A DNA stretch of 63,069 nucleotides, counting the filler, from Globobulimina sp. (taxonomy: Eukaryota), in the NCBI GenBank assembly GCA_003354225.1. It is 41 parts of 41 records of this genome, joined end to end, with 100 filler letters (N's around TTAATTAATTAA, not from the genome) between each part and the next. Parts side by side here need not be neighbours in the genome. Positions count along the whole stretch, not along the records: positions 27,746 to 29,186 come from PIVH01016624.1; 40 more parts are not named here. One strand, given 5' to 3'. The translations under genes and the position numbers were made by a program. The notes under the pieces were generated by a model, which had not been told where the DNA came from, did no database searches, and was given only the letters and a program-made list of their open reading frames with translations. The number at the start of each line of letters is the position of its first letter. The stretch's first letter is position 1. Shown one piece after another: positions 28,027 to 29,186 of the stretch.

Positions 28027-29186
28027 ATGGGCGGTTTCTTTGGAAAAGCATTAGATAGATTTAACAACAACAATCGAGCAATTAGTTTCACAGTGTTTGA
28101 TGTTGGCGGACAAGACAAACTACGCGATTTATGGAAGCATTACTACCCTGGCTCAAGTGCAATAATATTTATGGTCGATTCCAATGATCGTAGCAGAATT
28201 GATTTGGCAAAAAAAGAATTACATCATATCCTGCAAGAGGACGAATTAAGTGACGATGCAGTGTTACTGGTGCTGGCAAATAAACAGGATCTACCAAACG
28301 CAATGTCTGCCACTCAAATAACACAAAAGTTGTCATTGACAACAATCAAAAAAAGAGAATGGCATATTGTGCCAACGTGTGCGACCACAGGGGATGGATT
28401 GTATGAAGGACTGGATTGGCTGTCAGCTGCATTCGACAGATTAAAAATAAAAAACAGGAATGGACACAGAATTTTAATAATTGGGTTAGATTCTGCTGGT
28501 AAAACAACATTTTTGTATAAATTAAAAATAGGAGAAACAGTCACTACCATACCTACCATTGGTAAGTATATATAGTTTGTCATCATATATATATATATTT
28601 TTACACATAATACCATGATAATTGATGATGTACAGGTTTTAATTGTGAAACTGTGTCCTATTCAATGCCTAAATCTTCGGCAAGACATAACAAACAAACA
28701 ATTGGTTTATCGATGGGTGGTGCTAAAAATGTAGGTAATTTTAGAAAATGTATTGAACAAAATATAATGCCATCCGTTGACTCAATAACTTATGAAGGAT
28801 TATTGTATGAATATCAATTTGATACATCGACTGTTGGTGATTTGAATGTTGTTCATGATGATGAGAAAGATGATGGTTCGCTGTTATTTTACCCAACTTA
28901 TTGTTACGCAAAAACAAAAAAGATTGATTTTTCTGCTGAAGATTTAGCAAAAATATCAACAAGCAGCGAAGATGAATATTTTCTGACTGTTGGTTTAAAT
29001 TCGAATATCGAGAAAGATGATTTTAAGCGAAAACATTTGAATTTAATTATTGTTTTAGATAAATCGGGTTCAATGGGGGAGGCATTCAGCGGAGATAACG
29101 TTAATTTTGCATATAATTATGATAGAACTGCAACAAAAATGCATGTTGCCAATAAAGCAATCATTACATTGTTAAAACATTTGACG
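28027..29186 (+). CDS. Circularly permuted ARF-family GTPase fused to a VWA domain (3' truncated by contig end)
   Basis: MG start. DVGGQ at 28099, NKQD at 28279, TCAT at 28375, GLDSAGKT at 28483, TIPTIG at 28546. Intron 28562-28635 gives G|FNCETV and continues in frame to LDKSGSM at 29058. Confidence 0.88.

Follow-up and report, generated by a model that had tools for sequence, protein, structure and literature searches.

Circular permutation joined to a VWA (von Willebrand factor type A) domain has been described in the Ras family as cpRAS (Elias and Novotny 2008, PMC2430557). As described there, cpRAS proteins carry their G motifs in the order G3-G4-G5-G1-G2; their chain is cut open after strand 2 and before strand 3, and their C-terminal half contains a VWA domain. 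Their GTPase domain is of the Ras family, has a 'TIE' G2 motif and follows an unrelated N-terminal region of 40-66 residues, while the VWA part is annotated as a Sec23/Sec24 trunk with a four-Cys motif upstream. The taxa listed for cpRAS are metazoans, a choanoflagellate, Capsaspora, Amoebozoa and Naegleria, with Foraminifera not among them. The same source relates the argument of Anand and colleagues that opening the beta2-beta3 turn should prevent a GTPase from folding, with cpRAS as the sole counter-example. Here we describe a gene in a 63,069-base stretch of DNA from the Globobulimina sp. assembly GCA_003354225.1 (the whole stretch is called the window below), which encodes an Arf domain in the cpRAS order running into a VWA module. 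The permuted Arf is a new Arf-family variant of cpRAS-type permutation, a rearrangement previously known only for Ras.

Two further groups of proteins invite comparison. The YlqF/YawG (YRG) GTPases are, like this one, natural circular permutations of a P-loop GTPase, and they keep activity (PMC2430557); they differ in their order (G4-G5-G1-G2-G3, cut between strand 3 and helix 2) and in being ancient, universal and outside the Arf branch of the Ras superfamily. Tandem and multidomain ARF proteins (Vargova et al. 2021, PMC8358228) resemble the window protein in joining Arf to other domains or to a second Arf, but retain whole copies; tandem duplication of this kind is the likely precursor of the permuted form. 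The main text of that paper makes no mention of permutation, VWA, von Willebrand, Reticulomyxa or Foraminifera, its supplementary architecture table falling outside this check.

Identification of the permuted Arf domain

The gene opens with an ATG at 28027. Its first exon (28027-28561; P0001, 178 aa) matched the Pfam Arf family (PF00025) at 195.2 bits (E 8e-58; cut-off 22.3) in two stretches, while the competing GTPase families (Ras, Roc, SRPRB) reached at most 39.7 bits, Ras itself scoring 35.8 bits. The stretches were found in reversed rather than canonical colinear order, with profile positions 56-172 first and the N-terminal third second. A phmmer search against the PDB matched 392 distinct sequences, and all 60 of the 60 listed were Arf or Arl. 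In the best match, Arf1 3lrp, query residues 17-137 corresponded to Arf1 59-178 (169.9 bits), and a second segment placed query residues 132-178 on Arf1 5-49 (40.5 bits). Taken together, the two Pfam stretches and the order of the phmmer segments establish that the segments are truly reversed, well outside what chance would give.

Each of the five G motifs is intact and present a single time, and neither the catalytic Gln nor the G2 Thr has been lost. Identity to canonical Arf is 81% in the permuted beta1-alpha1-switch 1 third and 65% in the beta3-alpha5 part. Canonical Arf1 (3lrp, 1hur, 3tjz) and the window protein share all G motifs, the Gly2 helix and two members of the aromatic triad, Phe and Tyr; the window protein differs in its reversed segments, its open beta2-beta3 hairpin, its interswitch Phe and its C-terminal fusion.

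An earlier note, made from the sequence without database searches, had described an Arf-type N-terminus followed by G3-G4-G5-G1-G2 in one chain, cut in the loop between beta2 and beta3. Pfam, phmmer and alignment agree on the motif order. In the alignment with canonical Arf the cut falls at the beta2/beta3 turn, where ...ETVSYS leaves the domain and RA-ISFTV enters it. The open reading frame, motifs, coordinates, intron at 28562-28635 and in-frame second exon were likewise as described in that note. The N-terminus also stood up to comparison: of residues 1-11, seven are identical in the canonical Arf1-like protein P0304, a score that none of 2000 shuffles with Met-Gly held fixed could reach, and the hydrophobic moment of the helix is 0.59, compared with 0.53 for P0304. 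The Met-Gly amphipathic helix of the ARF family is thus present at the level of sequence, and Gly2 stands in what we take to be an N-myristoyltransferase consensus. A MAFFT alignment offered another reading of the N-terminal peptide, as a degenerate or decayed beta2; this was rejected, with switch 1/beta2 scoring 12-18 against 34-40 for the Arf N-helix.

At the other join, the alpha5-to-beta1 connector aligns with the extreme end of the Arf C-terminal tail (LDWLSAAVQKLK) and then continues for 7 residues. It might conceivably be a remnant of a second N-helix, although this is ambiguous, as shuffling produced scores as high in 38 of 2000 trials and the alignment with the C-terminal tail is equally good.

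Gene structure and public contigs

The second exon (28636-29186; P0002) continues in frame and is open up to the contig end, for a total open frame of 1086 nt. Part of the contig is contained in eight of ten public runs, of which four (X1, X2, X6 and X8), from four studies, were compared. A 722-nt contig of X1 covers 27774-28495 with 0 differences and bridges both joins (28063-28080 and 28447-28467), and a second X1 contig keeps the intron; this run is possibly the assembly's own source. The X2 contig (1060 nt), from a different study, joins 28003-28560 directly to 28635-29123, with 10 differences. X6 provided a 2464-nt contig of a ~94%-identical relative, which has the same layout and joint and extends 1319 nt past 29186. 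X8 provided a 1345-nt contig, ~96% identical, with the same order and the joint. X8 and X1 share an organism code, yet X8 is only ~96% identical, and is either a paralogue or a divergent strain.

In X2, X6 and X8 (three studies) the same 74 nt, with GT..AG ends, are skipped, and apart from the joints the intron stretch has no cover in these runs; the predicted intron is borne out by these three intron-less contigs. Sequencing adapter was found at the ends of the X2 contig (at 28003) and the X6 contig (at 28000), and such intron-less, adapter-ended contigs are most simply cDNA. In the X6 comparison 20 of the 32 changed codons listed are synonymous. None of the listed X6 changes lies in a G motif, and the sole X6 indel, a 9-nt in-frame insertion in the beta2-to-VWA linker, is common to X6 and X8.

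The VWA module and its foraminiferal family

Only the start of the VWA domain lies in the window (first strand, DxSxS and ~38 further residues), and Pfam matched no family on exon 2 alone because the contig ends ~38 residues after DKSGS. The assignment was made instead from homologues that match VWA and from the continuation of the X6 contig past 29186. Among 1.84 billion representative sequences, 517 relatives of exon 2 were detected at E <=0.001 and 19 at E <=1e-30. Pfam was run on 73 of these (those of at least 350 aa, in rank order, of 150, with the other 77 left out; E up to 1e-5), and VWA_2 was found in 70 and VWA in 65, starting at the aligned LNL..VLD.SGSM. In the family alignment the metal ion-dependent adhesion site (MIDAS) residues D266, S268 and S270 are invariant, and T397 and D430, whose Thr and Asp positions fall beyond the contig end, occur in at least 90% of rows. 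The in-frame passage of the chain into a VWA-family module with DKSGS is thus supported through homologues.

Of the 20 top relatives 13 carry a species or genus name, and all 13 are Foraminifera (Nonionella stella, 7; Bolivina argentea, 4; Rosalina, 1; Elphidium, 1). The N-terminal parts of the top relatives include clathrin link, PDZ, Snf7, Rab-like, 14-3-3, AP sigma, FH2, DnaJ and G-alpha, to which the census of 73 members, with two Snf7 proteins, adds actin (2), AP mu, UEV and SAM. Lower-ranked relatives look bacterial, with membrane anchors, SLH domains and pentapeptide repeats. The closest solved sequence to the module is the VWA domain of inter-alpha-trypsin inhibitor H1 (E 0.005), and an Atlas search retrieved generic VWA clusters spanning every domain of life, some with YfbK_C. 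No relevant paper was found in a search of the literature on a VWA fusion family in foraminifera.

Comparison with cpRAS

The window protein and cpRAS have the same motif order and the same break, with the GTPase N-terminal of the VWA part (Elias and Novotny 2008, PMC2430557), and both are eukaryote-specific with a patchy distribution. They differ in several respects. The window domain is Arf by its Pfam scores, and its G2 region reads TIPTIGFN, not TIE; it keeps the Met-Gly helix of Arf, whereas the N-terminal region of cpRAS is unrelated. The module family matches VWA, VWA_2 and VWA_3 and is set apart from the cpRAS VWA by description: a Pfam census of the 73 members (E up to 1e-5) did not place the Sec23/Sec24 trunk (PF04811) in its top 25 families by number of matches, and five relatives showed no match to it at E up to 0.1. 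Furthermore, 2 Cys residues lie between beta2 and the VWA start, compared with the four-Cys motif described for cpRAS. Since the domain scores as Arf over Ras and no match to a Sec23/24-type VWA appeared within those limits, the permuted Arf is independent of cpRAS and convergent with it, as the earlier note had proposed; its segments are 63-87% identical to Arf1 and lack the Ras features given for cpRAS.

Arf-side relatives and probable origin of the permutation

A search among proteins of similar length gave 7976 matches, nearly all canonical Arfs, with ranks two and three differing. P0276, a 169-aa fragment from Nonionella stella, is 72% identical and has the same permuted order: a Met-Gly helix MGSFFGKALETLHGNSE leads directly into beta3, G3-G4-G5 follow, the alpha5-to-beta1 join is the same, and the G motifs are kept as far as the fragment extends. 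P0275, a 243-aa fragment from Bolivina argentea, contains a whole Arf, G1 and G2 included, with the same connector after alpha5. Past the connector it continues with a second beta1-alpha1-switch 1-beta2 and then RYSMRKPSTKPTKHTIGLSMG (...TIGLSMG), which is the entry to the VWA module in the window protein.

Compared with canonical Arf, P0275 shows 47% identity in its first-copy N-terminal third and 87% in the second copy, which occupies the permuted position. This difference fits duplication and deletion, with the downstream beta1-alpha1-beta2 copy kept under constraint. From its layout, P0275 looks like a candidate duplication intermediate of circular permutation, and the permutation would most likely have arisen by tandem duplication followed by deletions.

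A search with the junction region (residues 121-170) returned 28 proteins, of which only P0275 and P0276 exceeded 70 bits (91 and 74, respectively) and spanned the junction; the remaining matches reached at most 54 bits. Two other candidates were examined and rejected. P0400, with 96% of the junction region covered, is an Arf in canonical order whose N-terminal helix is long, and P0413 (280 aa, atypical, with an identifier in the style of the Bolivina and Nonionella entries) has the canonical order with a long insertion between G4 and G5.

A search for longer fused forms gave 504 proteins at E <=0.001 (1391 candidates), and the best 120 were all tandem Arfs or other Arf fusions, none with a VWA Pfam match. 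When exon 1 was compared by phmmer with 151 relatives of the VWA module (P0123-P0273), only the Rab-like P0131 matched; with no Arf among them, a permuted Arf-VWA protein of full length is absent from those databases. The NCBI fragment P0125 (135 aa, from a 708-bp contig) is a 69%-identical copy of exon 2 that starts ...ETVSYSM, which suggests a paralogous permuted Arf-VWA gene.

Predicted fold

The fold of exon 1 was predicted with AlphaFold2 from an alignment of P0276, P0275 and 41 colinearly aligning tandem-Arf proteins. The model had a mean predicted local distance difference test score (pLDDT) of 77.5 and a predicted template modelling score (pTM) of 0.78, and its elements follow in the order beta3, alpha2, beta4, alpha3, beta5, alpha4, beta6, alpha5, beta1, alpha1. 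Block-mean pLDDT was 90-97 over residues 41-120, 89 and 91 over 121-140, and 78 and 86 over 141-160. The best solved match in Foldseek was Arf1 3tjz_A, with a root-mean-square deviation of 1.6 Å over 130 columns (TMq 0.68).

Feature coordinates and context of the contig

The coordinates of the gene and its motifs are collected in Table 1. The window is composed of ~41 unrelated contigs of ~1.44 kb each (GC 34%), chained by 80 N-runs of 44 and 40 copies of TTAATTAATTAA in the pattern N44-TTAATTAATTAA-N44; the pieces are ordered by size, and their side-by-side position is without genomic meaning. Gene context is therefore limited to 27746-29186, and neighbouring genes past the linkers are unrelated. 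The contig with the gene is 1441 bp long, comes from a highly fragmented assembly and cuts the gene off at its end. Given that the public contig of the upstream neighbour ends at 27950 and those of the gene at 28000-28003, the gene begins ~50 nt past its neighbour. A tblastn search within the window found no second locus related to the permuted Arf-VWA gene. Long open frames lie on the unrelated adjoining pieces at 29471-30478 (+) and 26741-27697 (-); one of the two starts MGASESN... and, by eye, may be a GRASP-type Golgi stacking protein, and the other resembles a membrane transporter.

Table 1. Positions in the window of the permuted Arf-VWA gene, its motifs and the contig that carries it.
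Feature	Coordinates	Strand	Evidence or remark
Gene-bearing single contig	27746..29186	.	N/TTAATTAATTAA linkers on both sides
Tail of upstream neighbour	27746..27950	+	Frame 27698..27808 with stop at 27806-27808; 1918-nt public contig ends at 27950
5' untranslated leader	28000..28026	+	Two intron-less contigs (two studies) end in adapter at 28000 and 28003; without ATG before 28027
Arf-type N-terminus, Gly2 and amphipathic helix pattern	28027..28062	+	7/11 identical to canonical Arf1-like P0304
Asn-rich linker NNNNRA, N-terminal helix to strand beta3	28063..28080	+	Arf residues ~13-60 absent at this point
Arf beta3 to alpha5 (Arf1 61-181), with G3, G4 and G5	28081..28446	+	169.9 bits to Arf1 59-178; 78/122 identical to P0304 61-181
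G3 DVGGQ	28099-28113	+	Exon 1
G4 NKQD	28279-28290	+	Exon 1
G5 TCAT	28375-28386	+	Exon 1
Seven-residue connector IKNRNGH, Arf C-terminal helix to beta1	28447..28467	+	Alignment
Arf beta1-alpha1-switch 1 (Arf1 18-49), end of exon 1	28468..28561	+	40.5 bits to Arf1 5-49; 25/31 identical to canonical Arf
G1 P-loop GLDSAGKT	28483-28506	+	Exon 1
G2 Thr in TIPTIG	28555-28557	+	End of exon 1
74-nt GT..AG intron, phase 1, within the Gly codon of TIPTIG/FN	28562..28635	+	Skipped in X2, X6 and X8 (one contig each); retained in X1 record 2
Gly codon completed and strand beta2 FNCETV, last permuted G-domain element	28636..28655	+	Alignment
beta2 FNCETV	28638-28655	+	Exon 2
14-residue linker to VWA module	28656..28697	+	In-frame 9-nt insertion behind 28691 in X6 and X8
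Conserved pre-VWA region (...FYPTYCYA...VGLNSN)	28698..29033	+	517 matches; nearly invariant columns in family alignment
VWA domain start: first strand, DKSGS, following helix	29034..29186	+	Pfam VWA and VWA_2 begin at the aligned position in homologues
Putative MIDAS motif DKSGS	29058-29072	+	Exon 2

Discussion

The best explanation of these data, and one we consider probable, is a genuine gene of a foraminifer-like protist, in which an Arf1-derived, circularly permuted GTPase domain continues into a VWA (MIDAS) module. It is carried by the segment order, the intact motifs, the splicing and intron-less contigs, the conservation and the predicted G fold, all of which were demonstrated above. 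The earlier note had also named several findings that would speak against such a protein, and the outcomes favour it. There is no misassembly at either permutation junction, both being bridged by public contigs; an intron-less form exists, most simply a transcript; and P0276 is a homologue with the same order. The predicted model forms a G domain, judging from AlphaFold2 and the Foldseek match to Arf1, and no paper on a permuted Arf was found in full-text literature searches.

Several points nevertheless weigh against this explanation. Where Arf has its interswitch Trp (TVWDVGG), the permuted forms have Phe. The AlphaFold2 model covers exon 1 only and so is without beta2; its pLDDT is below 50 at residues 1-20 and 170-178, leaving the fate of the N-terminal helix outside the prediction. 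Because the tandem-Arf alignment carries Arf covariation by construction, the model indicates compatibility with the fold and is not proof of it. Foldseek aligned the colinear part only, at TMq 0.68-0.70, a score limited by the dependence of the aligner on order. The model of P0275 uses the first-copy N-terminal third and leaves the duplicate disordered, and at a mean pLDDT of 63.8 is not decisive. P0275 and P0276 are ~98% identical downstream of GGQDK despite two species labels and come from one data source; they are consequently counted as at least one rotaliid lineage, not two, and from their sequences may be isoforms, paralogues or cross-contamination within one study. The protein databases searched hold no full-length permuted Arf-VWA protein, and the run types of X2, X6 and X8 are not recorded as RNA, with X6 and X8 presumed to be so. 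Lastly, the comparison of the window with X6 (32 changed codons among the differences listed, 20 synonymous and 12 non-synonymous) rests on 34 of the 65 X6 differences, and the 4 synonymous and 5 non-synonymous codons that separate the window from X2 are too few to interpret.

Other explanations have to be weighed against the same data. The Arf part could be a targeting or bait module that has ceased to act as a switch: lacking its own GTP cycle, it would only mimic Arf or deliver the VWA module to proteins that partner Arf. The replacement of the interswitch Trp by Phe would suit such a role, as would the foraminiferal identity of all 13 named proteins among the 20 top relatives of the VWA module, and the fusion of that constant module to many conserved cytosolic proteins (actin, Snf7, FH2, 14-3-3, Rab-like and others). 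We regard a bait as unlikely, however: the window gene has lost none of its five G motifs, nor the catalytic Gln or the G2 Thr, and the same holds for the 72%-identical Nonionella fragment over the stretch that it covers, and the permuted beta1-alpha1-switch 1 is the best-conserved part of the domain (81-87% to canonical Arf), which is unexpected for a decaying nucleotide site. The bait overlaps with a working switch, since a bait could itself need GTP to resemble active Arf.

The presence in P0275 of two candidate beta1-alpha1-beta2 segments per beta3-alpha5 core, the low confidence of its model (mean pLDDT 63.8) and the shortness of the alpha5-beta1 connector, with 7 residues after the Arf C-terminal tail, would agree with Arf pieces that complement each other between molecules by domain swapping, or that alternate with a second copy, resulting in oligomerisation or a fold switch. 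The predicted monomer of the window protein, on the other hand, places beta1 and alpha1 at block-mean pLDDT 78-86 with a pTM of 0.78, and we find such an arrangement highly improbable. An artefact or dead gene, whether a chimeric contig or a decaying remnant of two tandem Arf genes, is barely credible. Although the contig is only 1441 bp from a highly fragmented assembly, and tandem Arf proteins, which are common, give colinear alignments with the permuted query, contigs from four runs and four studies agree on the order (one run possibly being the source of the assembly). Both junctions are bridged, the intron is precisely removed and the frame is open for 1086 nt, while synonymous changes predominate in the comparison with X6 and the same order is found in a distant foraminifer.

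The chain is laid out as a helix (residues 1-12), a 6-residue linker, beta3-alpha5, a 7-residue connector, beta1-alpha1-switch 1-beta2, a 14-residue linker and the VWA module. In the working permuted switch that we favour, the two Arf pieces would fold into one Arf-like G domain that still binds GTP, and an N-myristoylated Gly2, together with the amphipathic helix, would seat the protein on membranes. When canonical Arf binds GTP, its beta2-beta3 interswitch slides and the myristoylated helix is released. The VWA module would hang from strand beta2 and the membrane anchor from beta3, the two interswitch strands; as these shift on GTP binding, nucleotide state would change the relation between module and anchor. 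In this way the nucleotide could control where the VWA module sits at the membrane or how available it is there. GTP binding and GTPase activity, myristoylation and coupling to the VWA module are predictions.

There is also a broader proposal. Foraminifera could have a natural series that shows circular permutation under way, from a full Arf with a duplicated N-terminal third and VWA to a permuted Arf with VWA, in which the G domain could use the duplicated segment to fold in one or the other of two frames. The permuted Arf would also belong to a lineage-wide system that joins a constant VWA/MIDAS module to copies of Arf, Rab, G-alpha, actin, formin, clathrin, AP subunits, ESCRT-III, Tsg101-UEV and 14-3-3. 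In this broad form we think it quite unlikely. If it were true, such copies would be baits gated by nucleotide or ligand, perhaps integrated decoys through which interference with these hubs is sensed; alternatively, they would form a scaffold built on VWA and linked to each of the pathways.

That permutation has occurred twice independently at one site, with a VWA module following in both cases, suggests that this is a favoured route for wiring a small GTPase to a downstream domain. The interswitch moves when Arf binds GTP, and with the cut placed inside it the protein is a natural experiment on the toggle with an open hairpin. The Bolivina form is a rare candidate intermediate of the duplication-deletion route to circular permutation. 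The family of the VWA module, for its part, suggests that Foraminifera contain a set of VWA fusions still to be explored.

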